This document shows positions 1 to 20,521 of a stretch of 20,521 bases of DNA, in pieces. The stretch is from a virus. Positions within the stretch are counted from its first letter, which is position 1. Every line of letters begins with the position of its first letter. The position numbers and the translations under genes were made by a program. Below the pieces are notes generated by a model. That model saw nothing but the letters and a program-made list of their open reading frames with translations. It was not told the DNA's origin and made no database searches. Where the stretch lies: UHGV virus genome UHGV-0255412; one strand, written 5' to 3'.

Positions 1-2144
1 TACATCTGCACACCATGCCGCCGCATTATGACGCACTGACAACAGACAAGGACCGGAGGAACGCACCGGATACGGAACTGCTGCCGGGCGCAATCCTTCG
101 CCTGACCTGTGCGGAATGGTGGAAACGCAAACTGTGGCTGTTACGTTGCGAGTGGAGAGAGGAACAACTCCGCGCCGCCTGTCTGGTTTCCAGAAAAACA
201 TCGCCCTATCTGAGCCAGGACGCGTTAAGCGAGTTTCGCGCACAGCGCGAGAAAACTCGCGATTTTCTGAAAAGTTTCATGCTGGAAAACGAAGACGGCT
301 TCACGATTGATCTCGAGACAGTGTATTACGCGGGAGTCAGTAACCCGGTTCACCGTAAGGCAGAAATGATGGCCACCATGAAGGGACTGGAACTTCTGGC
401 CGAAGCCCGTGGCGACAAAGCGGTGTTTCTGACTGTCACATGCCCGTCAAAATACCACGCCACAACAGAGAACGGTCATCCGAACCCCAAATGGAACGGG
501 GCCACCATGCGCGACTCCAGCGATTACCTGGTTAACACGTTTTTTGCGGCGGTCCGCAAGAAACTGAACCGCGACGGCCTGCGCTGGTATGGCATCCGCA
601 CGGTGGAGCCTCACCATGACGGCACTGTGCACTGGCATATGATGGTCTTTGCTCATCCGGAAGAAATCGACAGCATCGTGGCCATCACCCGCGATATTGC
701 CATTCAGGAAGACCGCCACGAGCTGGGCAATGATATTACTCCGCGCTTTAAGGCGGAGTATGTCGACGGCTCAAAAGGCACGCCAACCAGCTACATCGCC
801 ACCTACATCGGAAAGAACCTGGACAGCCGCGCCGTGGATGACATCGACCCGAAAACGGGCAAGCCACGCGTTGACCACGAAACCGGAAAATCAATGGCCG
901 AGAGTGTGGAGCGCGCCATCGGCTGGGCGCGCCTTCATCGGGTCCGCCAGTTCCAGTTCTTTGGCATCCCCTCCCGTCAGGTGTGGCGTGAACTGCGCCG
1001 CCTTGCCAGCCAGATGGCACGCAACCCGGAAGGCCCGCAACGACTGAAAGATGACGCAATGGATGCGGTACTCGCTGCCGCCGATGCCGGGTGTTTTGCC
1101 ACCTACATTGAAAAACAGGGCGGCGTACTTGTTCCACGCAAAGACTACCTGATTCGCACCGCCTACGACCTCGCAGATGAGCTGAATGATTACGGCGAAC
1201 AGAGCGTACAGATTTACGGGATCTGGTCACCACTCATCGGGGAATCCTCCCGTGTGTGCACGCATCCGGATAACTGGAAACTGGTAAGACGTAAACCGGA
1301 AACGGAAGACAGCGCCCGCGAAAATGGTTTTGACCTTCAGGGCGGCCCTGCCGCCCCTTGGACTCGTGGCAATAACTGTCCCCGTGTACAGGAAACGGAC
1401 AACAACGGGACAGAACAGCCGGAAGAACGGCCAGCACCGTGGCCGCAGCTTCCTGACGGCGTTGACGTGAATGAATGGATGCGCTCACTGAAACGGCACG
1501 AACGCCGGGCGCTGATGCGTTCGCTGCGTGACAAACAGGCAAAAAACAGCAGTGATGAAATGCAGAACTGGACACAGAGCCGCAAACAGCCACGGCCTTT
1601 GCCTGATAACCACGAGTTACTCGCTAAAGAATGGCGGGAGTCTGCTGAATCTCTCGGCCTGCATATCGGTGAACAGCAGATGCAGCACCTGTTACGGGGC
1701 GGCAGTCTGTACGTTGACGGCAGCATCATTGCACCGCAGGGATTTGAAATTGTACGCAAACCGGATACCCGCCCGGACAGCCGAATCACGCAGCTCTGGC
1801 AGCGCCTGAGCCGTAATCATGGCGTAAGCAGCACGGAGATCCGCCATAACCCGGTCGCCAGCTATCTGGCACAGCTGGGGGCATCAGACCCCGAAGCAGC
1901 CGCACGCCTGGCATCCACACTTCAGCAGGACCAGAACACCATGAAAACACCCGTTACTGTGCTTTCTGACATGCTGCGCGCCATCCGCGACGCAGAGCAC
2001 GCACAGAGAATCAGTGAAACCACTGAACGCGCCAGCCGCAAAGCAGACCTGCTGCGGGGTGGCCTGACCAGCGGAAACAAAAAACAGACAGAAACGGGAC
2101 TCACGAATCCCGTAAATGAGCAAAAAACGCGCAGTGATATATGA
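1..2144 (+). CDS. A: Replication initiation endonuclease gpA (rolling-circle HUH nickase), 5'-partial at window edge
   Basis: Reading frame is open from the window start (frame 3), with no in-frame stop before the first Met at 15. Contains an HUH-type motif (TVHWHMMVF) and a tyrosine pair (YIATYIGKN) typical of P2 gpA-family initiators. Aligns from memory to the central and C-terminal part of P2 A. Position upstream of the accessory locus matches P2 synteny. Confidence 0.85.
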   Translation, partial: HLHTMPPHYDALTTDKDRRNAPDTELLPGAILRLTCAEWWKRKLWLLRCEWREEQLRAACLVSRKTSPYLSQDALSEFRAQREKTRDFLKSFMLENEDGFTIDLETVYYAGVSNPVHRKAEMMATMKGLELLAEARGDKAVFLTVTCPSKYHATTENGHPNPKWNGATMRDSSDYLVNTFFAAVRKKLNRDGLRWYGIRTVEPHHDGTVHWHMMVFAHPEEIDSIVAITRDIAIQEDRHELGNDITPRFKAEYVDGSKGTPTSYIATYIGKNLDSRAVDDIDPKTGKPRVDHETGKSMAESVERAIGWARLHRVRQFQFFGIPSRQVWRELRRLASQMARNPEGPQRLKDDAMDAVLAAADAGCFATYIEKQGGVLVPRKDYLIRTAYDLADELNDYGEQSVQIYGIWSPLIGESSRVCTHPDNWKLVRRKPETEDSARENGFDLQGGPAAPWTRGNNCPRVQETDNNGTEQPEERPAPWPQLPDGVDVNEWMRSLKRHERRALMRSLRDKQAKNSSDEMQNWTQSRKQPRPLPDNHELLAKEWRESAESLGLHIGEQQMQHLLRGGSLYVDGSIIAPQGFEIVRKPDTRPDSRITQLWQRLSRNHGVSSTEIRHNPVASYLAQLGASDPEAAARLASTLQQDQNTMKTPVTVLSDMLRAIRDAEHAQRISETTERASRKADLLRGGLTSGNKKQTETGLTNPVNEQKTRSDI

Positions 2145-2220: not shown

Positions 2221-3180
2221 ATGAAAATTTGTATCGACGACGGCTCCACCAACATCAAGCTGGCATGGACTGAGAACGGCGAACGCCGCAACGCCATCAG
2301 CCCGAACAGCTTCAAGTCGGAATGGTCTGCGCCGTTCGGTGGCACGCAGCCCGCGAACTACATGCTTGATGGCGTGCGCTATGGTTTTGATCCGGTCAGC
2401 GATCGCTTTGTCCAGACGACCGACACGCAATACCAATACAGCGATGTGAATGTCATTGCCATTCATCACGCGCTGGTCAAATCAGGCATCACGCCACAGG
2501 AGGTGGATGTGGTTGTCACCCTGCCACTGAGCGAGTATTTCGACACAAACGCACAGCCGGACATGGCCAACATCAACCGCAAAAAAGCGAACGTTATGCG
2601 CCCGGTGGAGTACCAGAACGGTGAGGCATTCACTATCCGTAACGTGCGGGTTATGCCTGAATCCATTCCGGCAGGCTTTAAGGCACTGGCTGACATGAGT
2701 CCGTTTGAATCCCTGCTGATTGTGGATTTGGGCGGAACCACGCTGGATGTGGCAAAGGTTCAGGGACAACTGGCAGGTATCAGCCAGGTGTTTTGCGATC
2801 CACACGTAGGCGTTTCCCTGATGGCCGATGCCGTACTGTCGGTGATGGCCACTAACGGTATGCGTACCAGTCACCACATCGCCAATACCATTATCGAACA
2901 TCGCCATGATGAAGCCTGGCTGCGCCAGCACATCCACAATGACGCGCATTACGTCAGCCTGATGGCGGTTATTCGTGAAAAGGAAGAAACACTGAAACAA
3001 CGCGTGATCCGCGCGCTGGCGGGTTTTTCGGGTTACGGGCGGGTGATGGTTGTCGGTGGCGGGGCGGAGATTGTGGCACCCGCTATCCGCGAAGCCTGCG
3101 GAGTTAATGCGACTTTCATCGCGGACGAGGTGCCACAGTTTGCTCTGGTTAATGGGCTGTACGCAATGGACAAGGAGTAA
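2221..3180 (+). CDS. parM: ParM/StbA-family actin-like partition ATPase
   Basis: N-terminus MKICIDDGSTNIKLAW...ISPNSFKSEW...YSDVNVIAIHHAL...EVDVVVTLPL...DLGGTTLDV closely matches my recollection of plasmid R1 ParM (MLVFIDDGSTNIKLQW...). RBS AAGGAA 7 nt upstream of the ATG. 319 aa, typical ParM length. Confidence 0.85.
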   Translation: MKICIDDGSTNIKLAWTENGERRNAISPNSFKSEWSAPFGGTQPANYMLDGVRYGFDPVSDRFVQTTDTQYQYSDVNVIAIHHALVKSGITPQEVDVVVTLPLSEYFDTNAQPDMANINRKKANVMRPVEYQNGEAFTIRNVRVMPESIPAGFKALADMSPFESLLIVDLGGTTLDVAKVQGQLAGISQVFCDPHVGVSLMADAVLSVMATNGMRTSHHIANTIIEHRHDEAWLRQHIHNDAHYVSLMAVIREKEETLKQRVIRALAGFSGYGRVMVVGGGAEIVAPAIREACGVNATFIADEVPQFALVNGLYAMDKE

Positions 3181-3541: not shown

Positions 3542-4138
3542 TCAGAATTTAGTATGCAATTTATCTACCAATCGCTTAGCCTCATTAAGTAGTTTTTGGT
3601 ATTCCCTGCTATCGTTTTCCTGATCTTCATACGCTCGCCGAACACGCCATCGAAGAGCAAGGCATTTTAAATTCCGGTAAAACCTCGGATTACGCTTGCG
3701 GCACTCTTCCATATAAGGTTCAAAATGGACATCAAGAAAGATTAAGGTAGAACCATAAACACGATATAGATACCGCTCATCATACAAACCGTTATTCACG
3801 GCATTAGCACAACGCTCCCACTCATTAAAAATGAGTTTTAATGCTTTTGCTCCATCCGTTTGAGAATATTCCTCTTTTCCCCAATCAGCGATCGGAAAGT
3901 TATGGCGATCCTTATGAATACGTAGCACTTCTGACCACGCATCAACTATGTCCTTGTTACGTTTATATGCAGCCTCGAAATCCAACGAATTTTTTTCGCG
4001 CGACGTTTTTCTTTGATTTCGTATGCTAATCACTGCAATAAGCGCACCCGCAGCTCCTGGATAAAACGTAGGGCTGGATTCCCAAATACTGGAAAAAATT
4101 TTTCCTATATAACTAAGGGCAGAAAGAACTAGATCCAT
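3542..4138 (-). CDS. Hypothetical protein (198 aa) with a hydrophobic N-terminus; candidate accessory or defence cargo
   Basis: Long ORF on the minus strand within a visibly AT-rich segment that contrasts with the GC-rich phage backbone. N-terminal hydrophobic stretches (LVLSALSYIGKIF..., GAAGALIAVISI) suggest a membrane anchor. I recognise no family from the sequence. Confidence 0.6.
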   Translation of the reverse strand: MDLVLSALSYIGKIFSSIWESSPTFYPGAAGALIAVISIRNQRKTSREKNSLDFEAAYKRNKDIVDAWSEVLRIHKDRHNFPIADWGKEEYSQTDGAKALKLIFNEWERCANAVNNGLYDERYLYRVYGSTLIFLDVHFEPYMEECRKRNPRFYRNLKCLALRWRVRRAYEDQENDSREYQKLLNEAKRLVDKLHTKF

Positions 4139-16241: not shown

Positions 16242-16842
16242 TTCACTGTTACCACCATCAGCCAGCAATTTCATGCGTTGTGCCGAAGCCGTCGGAACAC
16301 GCATTACAGACATTCCGGTAGACCTCAACACGCTGTGGTCGCCGGACACCTGCCCGGTGCATCTGCTGCCTTATCTCGCCTGGGCGTTTTCCGTTGACCG
16401 CTGGGATCGCAACTGGCCGGAAGAGACAAAGCGACAGGTAATTCGTGATGCATGGCTGATACACCGACACAAAGGGACCATCAGCGCACTGCGAAGAGCC
16501 GTGGAGCCTCTCGGCTACCTGATTGAAGTAAAGGAGTGGTGGCAACTCAACGAGGAGCCGGGAACATTTCGCATTGTTGTCGGAGTACTTGATCAGGGCA
16601 TCACCGATGAAATGTATCAGGAACTTGAGCGCCTTATTGCGGATGCAAAACCAGTAAGTCGCCATCTGACGGGGCTGGCGATCAGCCTGAGTGTGAACGG
16701 AAAGATTTTCGTTGGTACGGGATGCTATCACGGCGATGCCCTGACGGTTTATCCCTACACCCCGGAGTCCATTATTGTCGAAGGGGATTATTTCCCTGCC
16801 CCGGCCATTCATTTAATTGATAATCTGAGAGTAAACGCATGA
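16234..16842 (+). CDS. I: Baseplate / tail-fibre attachment protein gpI
   Basis: ATG at 16234 overlapping the J stop (track ORF begins at an upstream GTG). Blocks NPDTCP, LLPYLAWAFSVDRWD and ELERLIADAKPVSRHL match recalled P2 I. Confidence 0.85.
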   Translation: MSNSLLPPSASNFMRCAEAVGTRITDIPVDLNTLWSPDTCPVHLLPYLAWAFSVDRWDRNWPEETKRQVIRDAWLIHRHKGTISALRRAVEPLGYLIEVKEWWQLNEEPGTFRIVVGVLDQGITDEMYQELERLIADAKPVSRHLTGLAISLSVNGKIFVGTGCYHGDALTVYPYTPESIIVEGDYFPAPAIHLIDNLRVNA

Positions 16843-18443
16843 CAGTGAAATACTACGCCATTCTGACTAATCAGGGCGCGGCACGACTGGCTAACGCGAC
16901 GATGCTCGGCAGTAAGCTGAATCTGACGCAAATGGCCGTTGGTGATGCAAATGGTGTGTTACCAACACCAGACCCTGCACAAACAAAACTGATTAACCAG
17001 AAACGCATTGCACCGCTGAATCTTCTGAGTGTTGACCCTAACAATCAGAGCCAGATTATTGCGGAACAAATCATCCCTGAAAACGAGGGAGGATTCTGGA
17101 TCCGTGAGATTGGTCTTTATGATGATGAAGGCGTACTTATTGCAGTGGCAAACTGCCCGGAAACGTACAAACCGCAGTTGCAGGAAGGCAGTGGACGCAC
17201 CCAGACTATCCGCATGATTCTGGTTGTCACGAACACCGAAGCCATCACGCTGAAAATCGACCCGTCTGTGGTTCTGGCAACCCGCAAATATGTGGATGAT
17301 AAAATCTCAGAGCACGAACAGTCACGACGTCACCCGGACGCCTCGCTGACCGCAAAAGGCTTTGTTCAACTTAGCAGCGCCACTAAAAGCACGTCTGAAA
17401 CGCTTGCGGCAACGCCAAAGGCTGTTAAGGAGGCATATGACCTGGCTAATGGCAAATACACCGCACAGGACGCTACCACTGCGCGAAAAGGTCTTGTCCA
17501 GCTCAGTAGCGCCACGAACAGCACGTCTGAAACGCTGGCAGCGACACCAAAAGCTGTTAAGGCGGTAATGGATGAAACGAACAAGAAAGCACCATTAAAC
17601 AGCCCGGCACTGACCGGAACGCCAACAACACCAACGGCGGCACAGGGGACTAATAGTACCCAGATCGCAAGCACAGCTTTCGTTATGGCCGCGATTGCCG
17701 CACTTGTAGATTCGTCACCTGATGCACTGAACACGCTGAACGAACTGGCTGCGGCGCTGGGCAATGACCCGAATTTTGCGACCACCATGACTAACGCGCT
17801 TGCGGGTAAGCAACCGAAGGATGCCACCCTGACGGCGCTGGCGGAGCTTGCTACATCAGCAGATAAACTCCCATATTTTACAGGGGCAGATCGTGCCGCG
17901 TTAACCGCGTTGACAAGTGTTGGACGTGCCATTCTTGGTAAAACCAGCACTCAGGGAGTTCTTGATTACCTTGGTTTAGGGGAAGGTTCGGCGCTGCCTG
18001 TTGGTGTGGCCGTTCCATGGCCCTCAGCCACGCTGCCAGCGGGGTGGTTGAAATGTAACGGCGCAGCATTTTCTTCTGAAATGTACCCCAATCTGGCAAA
18101 GGCCTACCCCACCAATAAATTACCGGATTTACGGGGTGAATTTATTCGCGGCTGGGATGACGGACGGGGCGTTGATAATGGGCGCAACCTACTGTCTGCA
18201 CAGTCTGACGCTATTCAGAATATAGTTGGCACTTTTGGGCGTACTCAGCTTTTTAAAGATGTGTTTAATTCAGGACCATTTAGTCAAACTGACTCTATAT
18301 TATCAGTAGGCTTACAACCAACTGAGATCATTGAAGGATATGGTGCTTCTGTATGGACATTCGACGCCTCTCGCTCAGTTCGCACAGCATCTGAAACACG
18401 CCCCCATAACATTGCGTTTAATTACATCGTAAGGGCAGCATGA
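16839..18443 (+). CDS. H: Tail-fibre protein gpH: constant N-terminal part fused in-frame to variable C-terminal cassette 1 (tail-collar-like tip)
   Basis: N-terminus and the duplicated QLSSAT(K/N)STSETLAATPKAVK motif match P2 H. The C-terminal ~150 aa (from GLGEGSALPVGV to NIAFNYIVRAA) belong to a cassette family repeated four more times downstream. Confidence 0.9.
   Translation: MTVKYYAILTNQGAARLANATMLGSKLNLTQMAVGDANGVLPTPDPAQTKLINQKRIAPLNLLSVDPNNQSQIIAEQIIPENEGGFWIREIGLYDDEGVLIAVANCPETYKPQLQEGSGRTQTIRMILVVTNTEAITLKIDPSVVLATRKYVDDKISEHEQSRRHPDASLTAKGFVQLSSATKSTSETLAATPKAVKEAYDLANGKYTAQDATTARKGLVQLSSATNSTSETLAATPKAVKAVMDETNKKAPLNSPALTGTPTTPTAAQGTNSTQIASTAFVMAAIAALVDSSPDALNTLNELAAALGNDPNFATTMTNALAGKQPKDATLTALAELATSADKLPYFTGADRAALTALTSVGRAILGKTSTQGVLDYLGLGEGSALPVGVAVPWPSATLPAGWLKCNGAAFSSEMYPNLAKAYPTNKLPDLRGEFIRGWDDGRGVDNGRNLLSAQSDAIQNIVGTFGRTQLFKDVFNSGPFSQTDSILSVGLQPTEIIEGYGASVWTFDASRSVRTASETRPHNIAFNYIVRAA
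17355..17562 (+). repeat. Internal tandem duplication in gpH (132-bp / 44-aa period; QLSSAT(K/N)STSETLAATPKAVK)
   Basis: Two near-identical units read directly, starting at ~17355 and ~17487; also present in P2 H as I recall. Confidence 0.7.
17959..17984 (+). other. Candidate Hin/Gin/Cin-family crossover site at the constant/variable junction of gpH (TTCTTGATTACCTTGGTTTAGGGGAA)
   Basis: 26 bp with 18/26 identity to hixL as I recall it (TTCTTGAAAACCAAGGTTTTTGATAA), including the TTCTTGA left end, the ACC-NN-GGTTT core and the terminal AA. Sits exactly where cassette homology begins. Confidence 0.5.
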
Positions 18444-18462
18444 AAACGTTGGTTTGGGGGGA
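18437..18462 (+). other. Candidate crossover site at the cassette 1 / cassette 2 junction (AGCATGAAAACGTTGGTTTGGGGGGA)
   Basis: hix-like AAAAC-GTT-GGTTT core spanning the gpH stop codon and the start of the next cassette; the same junction sequence recurs at every cassette boundary. Confidence 0.45.
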
Positions 18463-18930
18463 GGCTCTGCGCTGCCCGTTGGTGTACCTGTTCCATGGCC
18501 CTCAGCCACACCGCCAACGGGGTGGCTAAAATGTAACGGAGCAGCATTTTCTTCTGAAAAGTACCCCAAGCTGGCAAAAGCCTACCCCACCAATAAATTA
18601 CCGGATTTACGGGGTGAATTTATTCGTGGCTGGGATGATGGGCGAGGAATTGATGCAGCACGCGCTTTATTGAGCATTCAAACCGGGATGTTGGAAAAAC
18701 ACCGCCATATTGTTGTAGCTAACGATGGATATGACACAAAGGATGAATGGGAGTTGGCCACGATTTTCAAAAAAACATATACACAAGGCAGGGGGCTTGA
18801 TGCCACAAATACAGGAGGGAGTTTGATTCCATCACCAACGCTTCATTCACGAGGAAGTATTGGTAACACAGGTGGTAGTGAAACCCGCCCCCGCAATATT
18901 GCATTTAACTATATCGTGAGGGCGGCTTAG
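18454..18930 (+). CDS. Silent (promoterless, start-less) alternative tail-fibre C-terminal cassette 2
   Basis: Frame is open from 18433 with no RBS or ATG. First ~68 aa are near-identical to the C-terminal cassette of gpH, the middle is divergent, and the end is the conserved ETRPRNIAFNYIVRAA. Confidence 0.7.
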   Translation: MGGGSALPVGVPVPWPSATPPTGWLKCNGAAFSSEKYPKLAKAYPTNKLPDLRGEFIRGWDDGRGIDAARALLSIQTGMLEKHRHIVVANDGYDTKDEWELATIFKKTYTQGRGLDATNTGGSLIPSPTLHSRGSIGNTGGSETRPRNIAFNYIVRAA

Positions 18931-18936
18931 TTATAT

Positions 18937-19548
18937 TCAACTGGCTGCTGCCAGTGGTATTTCCGGCCAGTTGATATCTGATGCCATGTTTATATCCATT
19001 GCGTTCAGTGCGTCTATATAATCCAGCACGGCGTTAAGCCGGGTGGTTTCTGCCTGCGTCAACTTCCGCCCGGCCTGCAACTTCAACTGAATCAGACTAA
19101 TGGAAGCCATTGCAGTATCAATCAGCGACTGGCGCTGTGTTTCTGCCGCTTCTACTGCGGCGCTATGCTGTGCCTCGGTATCCGTCACCCATTTTTCACC
19201 ATCCCATTTATCGTATGGTGTTAACGGGGCGATAGTGGTTGTATTTTTCGGGTAGTCACCCAGCGTCGTGATTTCTTCGGTGTTTCCCGTATCAGTGCTA
19301 TAGACGGTTTCACCACGATGATCTGGCGTATACTCCCATGAATTTAAATTCTCCGAACGGCGGATAGCATAGCCCGCTTTATGTGCGCCCGGGGCATCTA
19401 AACAGGAATTTGCCGGAATACCGACACCCGCAGCAAGATATTCAGTTGATTCGGAAATATATTCCCGTGTCTCACCATCGTAGTTATAAACGACGATGTT
19501 TCCTGCCTGTACGGCAATAAGGTCATCATTTAATATCGCGTTATTCAT
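18937..19548 (-). CDS. Tail-fibre assembly chaperone (gpG / Tfa / Mu U-like)
   Basis: 203 aa on the minus strand, start overlapping the stop of cassette 3 (TAATG). C-terminal ...DALNAMDINMASDINWPEIP resembles the conserved Tfa C-terminus. Confidence 0.8.
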   Translation of the reverse strand: MNNAILNDDLIAVQAGNIVVYNYDGETREYISESTEYLAAGVGIPANSCLDAPGAHKAGYAIRRSENLNSWEYTPDHRGETVYSTDTGNTEEITTLGDYPKNTTTIAPLTPYDKWDGEKWVTDTEAQHSAAVEAAETQRQSLIDTAMASISLIQLKLQAGRKLTQAETTRLNAVLDYIDALNAMDINMASDINWPEIPLAAAS

Positions 19549-20006
19549 TATGCGGTTCTCACAATATAATTGAAGGCAATATTGCGTGGGCGGGTTTCAT
19601 TCCCCTCTGAGGATTCCGTTCTGTATTGACTGGTAAATCTACCGTTAATTGCACCTTGCCGGACGGCGTTATCTGTCGACAACAGACTATCCCCTCCTTT
19701 GTCATTTGGCACCAGTACCGTGTTATCCCACGCATCCCATGACCGAATATTATGATAATGACTTCCTGTTAACCACCCCTGCATGCTTAAGATGCCCCTT
19801 CCGGCATCCACCCCTCGCCCATCATCCCAGCCACGAATAAATTCACCCCGTAAATCCGGTAATTTATTGGTGGGGTAGGCCTTTGCCAGTCTGGGATACA
19901 TTTCAGAAGAAAATGCTGCGCCGTTACATTTCAGCCACCCCGTTGGCGGCGTGGCTGAGGGCCATGGAACGGGCACACCAACGGGCAGCGCAGAGCCTTC
20001 CCCCAA
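19548..20006 (-). CDS. Alternative tail-fibre C-terminal cassette 3 (inverted orientation), translationally coupled to the assembly chaperone
   Basis: Same conserved 5' (GEGSALPVGVPVPWPSATPPTGWLKCNGAAFSSE...LPDLRGEFIRGWDDGRG) and 3' (ETRPRNIAFNYIVRTA) ends with a distinct middle. No ATG; the frame is open back to the previous cassette's stop. Confidence 0.75.
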   Translation of the reverse strand: MGEGSALPVGVPVPWPSATPPTGWLKCNGAAFSSEMYPRLAKAYPTNKLPDLRGEFIRGWDDGRGVDAGRGILSMQGWLTGSHYHNIRSWDAWDNTVLVPNDKGGDSLLSTDNAVRQGAINGRFTSQYRTESSEGNETRPRNIAFNYIVRTA

Positions 20007-20023
20007 ACCAACGTTTTTATGCT
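19998..20023 (-). other. Candidate crossover site at the cassette 4 / cassette 3 junction (inverted orientation)
   Basis: Reverse complement reads AGCATAAAAACGTTGGTTTGGGGGAA, the same hix-like junction as at 18437-18462. Confidence 0.45.
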
Positions 20024-20445
20024 GCCCTCACGATGTAATTAAACGCAATATTACGAGGACGAATGGTTACATAATTAACCCCATCACCTCGTGAAGGCCC
20101 CGCAAATGAAAAACGGGAAAAGCCTGGTTGGTTAGAAACAATTTGGTCATAGTTATTGATTGAATGACCAGACCCAATGTCGAAATTACCTCCGTAATGA
20201 GAAAAACTTGTACCATCCTGCCCAGAAAGCAGGGTACGTCCCGCATCAATCCCGCGCCCATCATCCCAGCCACGGATAAACTCACCCCGTAAATCCGGTA
20301 ATTTTAACGTTGGGTAAGCCTTTGCCAGTTTGGGGTATTTTTCAGAAGAAAATGCTGCTCCGTTACATTTTAGCCACCCCGTTGGCGGTGTGGCTGAGGG
20401 CCATGGAACAGGTACACCAACGGGCAGCGCAGAGCCTTCCCCCAA
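20017..20445 (-). CDS. Alternative tail-fibre C-terminal cassette 4 (inverted orientation)
   Basis: Conserved 5' and 3' ends as in the other cassettes, with a different central region (…GQDGTSFSHYGGNFDIGSGHSINNYDQ…). Confidence 0.75.
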   Translation of the reverse strand: MGEGSALPVGVPVPWPSATPPTGWLKCNGAAFSSEKYPKLAKAYPTLKLPDLRGEFIRGWDDGRGIDAGRTLLSGQDGTSFSHYGGNFDIGSGHSINNYDQIVSNQPGFSRFSFAGPSRGDGVNYVTIRPRNIAFNYIVRAA

Positions 20446-20462
20446 ACCAACGTTTTCATGCT
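20437..20462 (-). other. Candidate crossover site at the cassette 5 / cassette 4 junction (inverted orientation)
   Basis: Reverse complement reads ...GCATGAAAACGTTGGTTTGGGGGAAGG, a hix-like core. Confidence 0.45.
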
Positions 20463-20521
20463 GCCCTTACGATGTAATTAAACGCAATGTTATGGGGGCG
20501 TGTTTCAGATGCTGTGCGAAC
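20457..20521 (-). CDS. 3' end of a fifth tail-fibre C-terminal cassette (inverted), truncated by the window edge
   Basis: Reverse complement of 20457-20521 translates to VRTASETRPHNIAFNYIVRAA*, identical to the C-terminus of gpH cassette 1. Confidence 0.6.

Follow-up and report, generated by a model that had tools for sequence, protein, structure and literature searches.

Several phages and prophages exchange the 3′ end of a tail-fiber gene by site-specific DNA inversion. In the two-state switches Mu G/Gin, P1 C/Cin, e14 P/Pin, P88, and EC958 Phi1, Phi2, and Phi4, whose enzymes belong to one serine invertase family, a 12-2-12 crossover site lies in the fiber gene, the 3′ end is exchanged in frame, and the invertase gene is adjacent; each switch consists of two sites and two tips, with a separate tail-fiber assembly gene, tfa (U and U′), for each tip. 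The Min system of the IncY plasmid p15B, reportedly described by Sandmeier, Iida, and Arber in 1990 and 1992, is said to contain six mix sites and to form 240 isomers. In the R64 shufflon, the tyrosine recombinase Rci and sfx repeats bring about overlapping inversions that pick one C-terminal segment of a surface adhesin, encoded by pilV. Two overlapping inversions, likewise named a shufflon, were described in the P2-like prophage of enteropathogenic Escherichia coli E2348/69, in which four variants coexist in clonal cultures, as found by sequencing and verified by polymerase chain reaction, and minority arrangements account for 10–50% in single-colony cultures (Goldberg et al., 2014; PMC4272514). 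The locus considered here occupies positions 17959–20521 of virus genome UHGV-0255412, a stretch of 20,521 nucleotides (nt) analyzed as a whole (hereafter the window), which is the late region of a P2-like prophage. This region is very probably a Min-type multiple DNA-inversion switch for the receptor-binding tip of the P2-like tail-fiber protein gpH. Earlier publications already cover the mechanism, the module, and the switching of a homologous copy, and no new principle is involved.

More than two sites, overlapping invertible segments, and 3′ cassettes that lack an ATG characterize Min-type systems, and the window has four sites and five such cassettes (Table 1). The constant part of H ends in crossover site J1 and is followed by promoterless cassettes that encode collar domains. 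Each cassette opens with the right half of a site, and the simple cassettes close, after the stop codon, with the left half of the site that follows; the central module consists of two cassettes placed tail-to-tail around a single tfa. In the proposed mechanism, a serine invertase of the Gin/Cin/Min family, encoded past the last site, would pair one plus site with one minus site, and strand exchange at the central TT would invert all DNA between them. The central module would be included in every inversion, and the cassette brought next to J1 would be fused in frame to H as the sole tip made. Sites, cassettes, reading frames, and orientations are seen in the window itself, and the invertase and the isomers are seen in its relatives, which are 16 collar-cassette loci that were fetched (L001–L016).

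The five cassettes comprise two in the plus orientation, one of them fused to H, and three in the minus orientation, the last cut by the window end; the repeats and the alignment agree with the initial annotation on this layout. A repeat search links the five segments by direct repeats of 214–262 nt (17963–18176/18441–18654, 214 nt, 88% identity; 19800–20061/20239–20500, 262 nt, 90% identity) and, between plus and minus cassettes, by inverted repeats of 209–285 nt (82–94% identity), all far above chance level. The assignment of v5 is based on the inverted repeat 18378–18662/20237–20521 (94%). In the alignment of the four complete cassettes, the N block spans columns 1–77 and is nearly invariant to residue 66, the common C block reads (ET)RPxNIAFNYIVRAA, and the middles are divergent and unrelated, which bears out the earlier description of a 5′ block of about 68 amino acids (aa) and a 3′ block of about 16 aa around a divergent middle. 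All cassettes match the Pfam Collar family (PF07484), and the Collar domain of the expressed tip lies at H residues 389–436. The cassette profile matches phage short-tail-fiber structures over its full length (9cuy, E = 2e-22; T4 gp12, 1ocy, E = 5e-6; the collar part of T4 gp37, 2xgf, E = 8e-19). Each cassette is therefore a full collar-type receptor-binding domain that carries a variable insert.

Table 1. Positions of the tip-switching locus and of the other genes in the window (v, cassette; T0–T3, cassette type; J, crossover site; ORF, open reading frame).
Feature	Position	Strand	Description
Gene H	16839–18443	+	ORF, 534 aa: Phage_tail_fib N domain, Phage_fiber_2 repeats, C-terminal Collar domain
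Constant part of H, up to crossover point	16839–17971	+	Pfam PF12571 (E = 2e-62), PF03406 (E = 9e-41)
Cassette v1, type T0, 156 aa	17973–18443	+	Fused in frame to H; expressed tip
Cassette v2, type T1, 159 aa	18451–18930	+	Silent; left arm of central convergent module
Cassette v3, type T3, 153 aa	19548–20009	−	Silent; right arm of central module
Cassette v4, type T2, 143 aa	20017–20448	−	Silent
Cassette v5, T0-like 3′ end	20456–20521	−	Cut by window end; reads ...VRTASETRPHNIAFNYIVRAA*
J1, inside H	17959–17984	+	TTCTTGATTACC TT GGTTTAGGGGAA; both half-sites canonical
J2	18437–18462	+	AGCATGAAAACG TT GGTTTGGGGGGA; left half is v1 3′ end and stop codon
J3	19998–20023	−	Reverse complement AGCATAAAAACG TT GGTTTGGGGGAA
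J4	20437–20462	−	Reverse complement AGCATGAAAACG TT GGTTTGGGGGAA
tfa, tail-fiber assembly (chaperone), 203 aa	18937–19548	−	Pfam Caudo_TAP (E = 1e-33)
gpA	15–2144		
Portal Q and terminase P		−	
O, N, M, L ... V, W, J, I, H		+	

Reading frames are open in all five cassettes visible in the window. The earlier statement that the cassettes lack a start codon of their own holds for ATG, but an in-frame TTG within the crossover site is taken as the start by ORF callers and RefSeq. In these annotations (L001, L003, L005), the silent cassettes appear as independent 'phage tail protein' genes that start at this TTG (window 18454, 20006, and 20445), with no visible ribosome-binding site. No record was found for the exact H protein of the window. 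The H gene of L011 (7796–9532) encodes 578 aa, compared with 534 in the window, and has the same T0 tip; the greater length points to a constant part whose number of Phage_fiber_2 repeats differs.

All four 26-bp junction sites lie exactly where the initial annotation had placed them. They have a 12-TT-12 layout with the same TT core, as expected of 26-bp serine-invertase sites, and all are intact. Two sites are in the plus and two in the minus orientation, so that partner sites are inverted, as in serine-invertase systems. J1 matches P1 cixR at 20 of 26 positions and Mu gix and hixL at 18 of 26 each; cixL, cixR, and gix were taken from annotated P1 and Mu GenBank records, and the hixL count equals that given earlier. 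For cixR, gix, and hixL alike, no other 26-mer on either strand of the whole window matches as well as J1. On a position weight matrix (PWM) built on nine independent Cin/Gin/P88/EC958 half-sites, J1 scores 24.6 bits, compared with a maximum of 15.0 bits in 100 shuffles. J2–J4 match cix, gix, and hix at only 14–16 of 26 positions. On alignment, the proposed hix-like character of the junctions holds up well for the site in H, whereas at the internal junctions it is true of one half only. The internal and terminal sites, of the form ACG TT GGT, agree with a published consensus that covers Mu, P1, e14, p15B, and S. boydii, and they closely resemble those of EC958 Phi2, whose inversion was observed directly in PacBio reads (PMC4134206).

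Every cassette stays in frame after exchange at the central TT (...VLDYL / GLGEGSALPVG...), and each of the four tip types is fused to H in some locus. The idea that inversion between the site in H and a minus site would swap the tip is supported, with the evidence for the invertase and for actual switching coming from relatives. The cassettes had also been described as joined head-to-tail by these sites, which is correct for the four junctions; v2 and v3, however, stand tail-to-tail around tfa with no site between them. The truncation of v5 at the window end implies that a fifth site follows. This terminal site is predicted to lie about 470 nt past position 20521, with the reverse complement AAAACGAAAACG TT GGTTTGGGGG.

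Sites and cassette types were mapped in the window and in the 16 relatives. Throughout this set, plus sites are followed by the central module and then by minus sites, without exception, and the constant part of H provides the left half-site of the first site. The terminal left half-site beside the invertase is AAAACGAAAACG or AAGACGAAAACG, always in the minus orientation. A simple cassette consists of a right half, body, stop, and left half; simple cassettes to the left of the central module (T1> <tfa <T3) are in the plus orientation, and those to its right in the minus orientation. The four cassette types recur in at least five different orders and orientations: >T0 >T1 <T3 <T2 (L001), >T2 >T3 <T1 <T0 (L009), >T0 >T2 >T1 <T3 (L010), >T0 >T3 <T1 <T2 (L011 and L013), and >T3 <T1 <T0 <T2 (L012). 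In L009, L012, and L013, all four cassette proteins are 100% identical in three different arrangements. L011 contains the four cassettes of the window at 100% identity with the central module flipped, and the window aligns end-to-end with APEC37 (L003) at 96.2% after one in silico inversion. Alternative orientations are present in the family, and this copy is seen in one state; the arrangement of the window was not found on contigs carrying the exact Tfa or the exact gpJ protein. Enumeration of every inversion between a plus site and a minus site yields 4 isomers for three sites, 12 for four, 48 for five, and 240 for six. For the window, with four visible sites and the implied fifth, the model predicts five tips and at least 48 isomers.

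The E2348/69 locus belongs to the same prophage family and module as the window, and active switching, with both inversions, has been demonstrated there experimentally. Its homologue of the region is L016, which contains cassettes T2, T1, and T3 together with an invertase and tfa with protein accession as in L001 and L003. The inversion coordinates given in Table S1 of the published work (NC_011601.1, 1891695–1893703 and 1892127–1893703; PMC4272514) fall on the three sites of L016, and the published repeat sequence begins ACCTTGGTTTGGGGGAAGG (PMC4272514). The L016 site homologous to J2 is one end of the observed 'small inversion,' and the four variants reported for these three sites are the number given by the enumeration model. 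E2348/69 has one simple cassette, three sites, three tips, and four isomers, whereas the window has at least three simple cassettes, at least five sites and tips, and at least 48 isomers. The locus in the window is somewhat larger than the experimentally characterized P2-like example, and it has the same design as p15B Min.

Systems of the Hin/Gin/Cin/Pin/Min family encode a serine recombinase of about 190–200 aa, with a Resolvase catalytic domain and a C-terminal HTH, beside the invertible DNA. In all 16 relatives, a 199-aa protein with Resolvase and HTH_7 domains is encoded just beyond the last site; its gene starts about 15–80 bp past the terminal site, on the same strand as H. This protein matches Gin structures (4m6f/3uj3, E = 3e-91) and is about 71–74% identical to Gin and Cin and 81% identical to the P88 enzyme; it shares 177 of 190 residues (93%) with the enzyme of the IncY plasmid L020. 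These systems also have a Fis-dependent recombinational enhancer, usually in the 5′ part of the invertase gene. In the relatives, the stretch that corresponds to the annotated enhancer of P1 cin matches P1 at 57 of 72 positions, compared with 55 of 72 between P1 and Mu, and is consistent with enhancer function, although it is coding sequence, so that its conservation alone is no proof. By analogy with APEC37 (L003), the invertase gene of the prophage in the window would lie at about 21.0–21.6 kb, and this copy presumably has an intact invertase and switches. A hairpin (AAAACCGCTAAT...ATTAGCGGTTTT) located 3′ of the invertase stop codon in L001 resembles a bidirectional terminator.

Several points weigh against a Min-type switch. 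The window ends at 20521, ahead of the expected recombinase, enhancer, and terminal site. Some prophages with the same backbone lack an invertase (L023, L027, L028, L030), cassettes are frameshifted in L002 and L004, and phage 673R5 has a frameshifted invertase. On the PWM from Cin/Gin-type half-sites, J2–J4 score at chance (0.1–5.5 bits); the scores are low because each left half, formed by the 3′ end of the preceding cassette, is a poor match, whereas the right halves are good (4.7–10.1 bits). In this respect, the proposed likeness of the junctions to hix, gix, and cix is strong for J1 and confined to one half-site in the other three. The long inverted repeats and mosaic N blocks also count here, and database isomers alone cannot separate homologous from site-specific exchange. 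Finally, a difference in host range between the tips is presumed.

The truncated window, the relatives of the same backbone that lack an invertase, and the frameshifts would fit a static locus, in which the cassettes would be paralogues or the remains of a decaying system, the invertase or site function of this copy would be gone, switching would have stopped, and the other arrangements would be old and fixed. The five visible cassettes nevertheless have open frames, the four sites are intact, and L011, which has the invertase, encodes the same four complete cassette proteins at 100% identity. The identical cassette sets in three arrangements argue for recent switching, and invertases can also act in trans, as in EC958 Phi4 (PMC4134206). 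A static locus is improbable on this evidence.

The N blocks (first 72 aa, L001–L016) form mosaic haplotypes that are common to different cassette types; type T0, for example, is found with N block AVPWPSATLPAG or with PVPWPSATPPTG. Given this pattern and the length of the inverted repeats, gene conversion or homologous recombination also acts here, among cassettes and besides site-specific inversion.

This raises the alternative that the inversions are mainly RecA-dependent and take place between the inverted 5′ blocks of about 210–285 bp, rather than at the 26-bp sites. The length and identity of the inverted repeats, the mosaic haplotypes, which show that homologous exchange or gene conversion happens, and the weakness of J2–J4 relative to canonical sites would all suit such a route. 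A Gin-family invertase is, however, always adjacent in the relatives. In addition, the left halves stay in place and the first polymorphic base, 6 nt to the right of the center (GGTTTA vs. GGTTTG), moves with the cassette; exchange therefore occurs within about 8 nt of the predicted crossover. The database isomers place only a weak constraint on the type of exchange (a window of about 8 nt, with left halves that differ and N blocks that are mosaic). RecA acting between 200-bp repeats of about 90% identity is expected to give far fewer minority forms than 10–50%, and the proportions in single-colony cultures of E2348/69 are far above that expectation. The isomers are also explained without deletions between the directly repeated blocks. 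RecA-mediated exchange surely contributes to the evolution of the region, but as the main driver of inversion it is unlikely, and a mainly RecA-dependent switch has only a very slight probability.

For the Min-type switch, the initial annotation had overlooked the tfa gene, which lies between v2 and v3. The start of tfa overlaps the stop codon of v3 (ATGA), and the gene is convergent with v2. It is the only assembly gene in the region and serves at least five tips, and this single gene is part of the invertible DNA. In the present state of the window (H-T0), tfa is antisense to H. On the 25 contigs examined that encode the exact Tfa protein, tfa is always linked to T3 and convergent with T1, and the P1-like IncY plasmid L020 has the same tfa arrangement (L020 5974–6585). 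Only half of the isomers place tfa in the orientation of H, and those that express T1 are never among them. This leaves two readings, namely that several collar tips can do without Tfa or that another route leads to tfa expression. A promoter and terminator scan of 16500–20521 found none above shuffle expectation and gave no lead to tfa expression in the antisense state. Read-through from the convergent FI–U operon was considered as an expression route and set aside, given the candidate bidirectional terminator after the L001 invertase. It is conceivable, though rather doubtful, that the switch acts on two things, with either Tfa-free tips or half of the isomers defective in the fiber, and that the site may mediate module exchange. 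If so, Tfa-independent tips or fiber-defective isomers would be an unreported regulatory layer in Min-type systems.

The same module is found outside P2-like prophages. Positions 17959–20521 match 239 plasmids at 86–92% nucleotide identity, mostly non-mobilizable E. coli plasmids of about 92–99 kb. One of these, pMTY1586_IncY (L020), has six sites, namely a P1-type S-gene site, four internal sites, and one terminal site; its cassettes are of the collar type, its central module is convergent and contains the only tfa, and its invertase gene adjoins the lyd genes, as it does in P1 and p15B. The likeness between the window and p15B Min draws on the organization of p15B and on the sequence of L020. 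In p15B and the IncY plasmids, the module is fused to a P1-type S gene and has six sites, whereas in the window it is fused to P2-type gpH in a chromosomal P88-like prophage and has at least five sites. The left half of the L020 S-gene site (L020 7532), TTCTTGATTACC, is identical to that of J1, and homology with the IncY plasmids and with inverted relatives begins at window 17968–17971. The homology between the P1-like plasmid and the P2-like prophage starts at the crossover site itself (L020 7532 vs. window 17959). These alignments suggest that unrelated phage types have traded the invertible module, with its boundary at the site, and they hint at a role of the site itself in mediating the exchange.

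The comparison with other known systems refines the original view of a shufflon-like locus more complex than Mu G or P1 C. The two-state switches share with the relatives of the window the serine invertase family, and with this locus a 12-2-12 site in the fiber gene, in-frame 3′ exchange, and an adjacent invertase, which is seen here in the relatives. They differ in that the window has overlapping segments and one tfa. P88 has the same backbone as the window, but a simple two-state Mu-like segment in the same place. The locus has more sites and tips than Mu G and P1 C, although it does not go beyond known systems, as p15B Min has the same design. The term shufflon-like is apt in the generic sense of multiple inversion, and overlapping inversions also select one C-terminal segment of a surface adhesin in R64; however, the recombinase is of the serine type in all relatives, not Rci, and the sites are hix/cix-type, which makes the resemblance to R64 one of analogy rather than membership.

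The practical interest of the locus lies first in host-range prediction: in a very common E. coli prophage family, about 2.5 kb of DNA can supply five or more receptor-binding tips, and the tip taken as expressed depends on the isomer that was assembled. For annotation, each silent cassette is listed as a 'phage tail protein' gene of its own, and the inverted repeats can give rise to chimeric assemblies. The locus is also relevant to phage and tailocin engineering.

Prophages about 97% identical to the backbone of the window occur in more than 1000 complete E. coli genomes, with at least 80% of the backbone present in more than 1000 of 5426. The backbone is of the phage P88 (Xuanwuvirus) type, including a FI–U tail operon that is inverted relative to P2. 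The FI-FII-E-T-U operon is flipped relative to P2 in L001 (10305–15619) and in P88 (L021 9618–15193); in the prophage family and P88, it converges on the invertase gene, and gene D is oriented as in P2.

Between replication gene A and portal gene Q, a hotspot for accessory genes in P2, the window encodes a ParM/StbA actin-like plasmid-segregation protein (2221–3180, plus strand; Pfam E = 2e-82 and 3e-68) and a DUF4760 protein (3542–4138, minus strand). A PADLOC search of the accessory genes at the left of the window, including these two, returned no matches. ParM is annotated at the equivalent position in many E. coli prophages.

Fiber modules also vary among prophages whose baseplate J protein is identical to that of the window. 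L023, L027, L028, and L030 have quite different fiber modules, and L022, L029, and L031 are two-state, with two tfa genes. In the gpJ-identical prophages that lack the invertase, its place is taken by a 190-aa ORF on the minus strand with no Pfam match.

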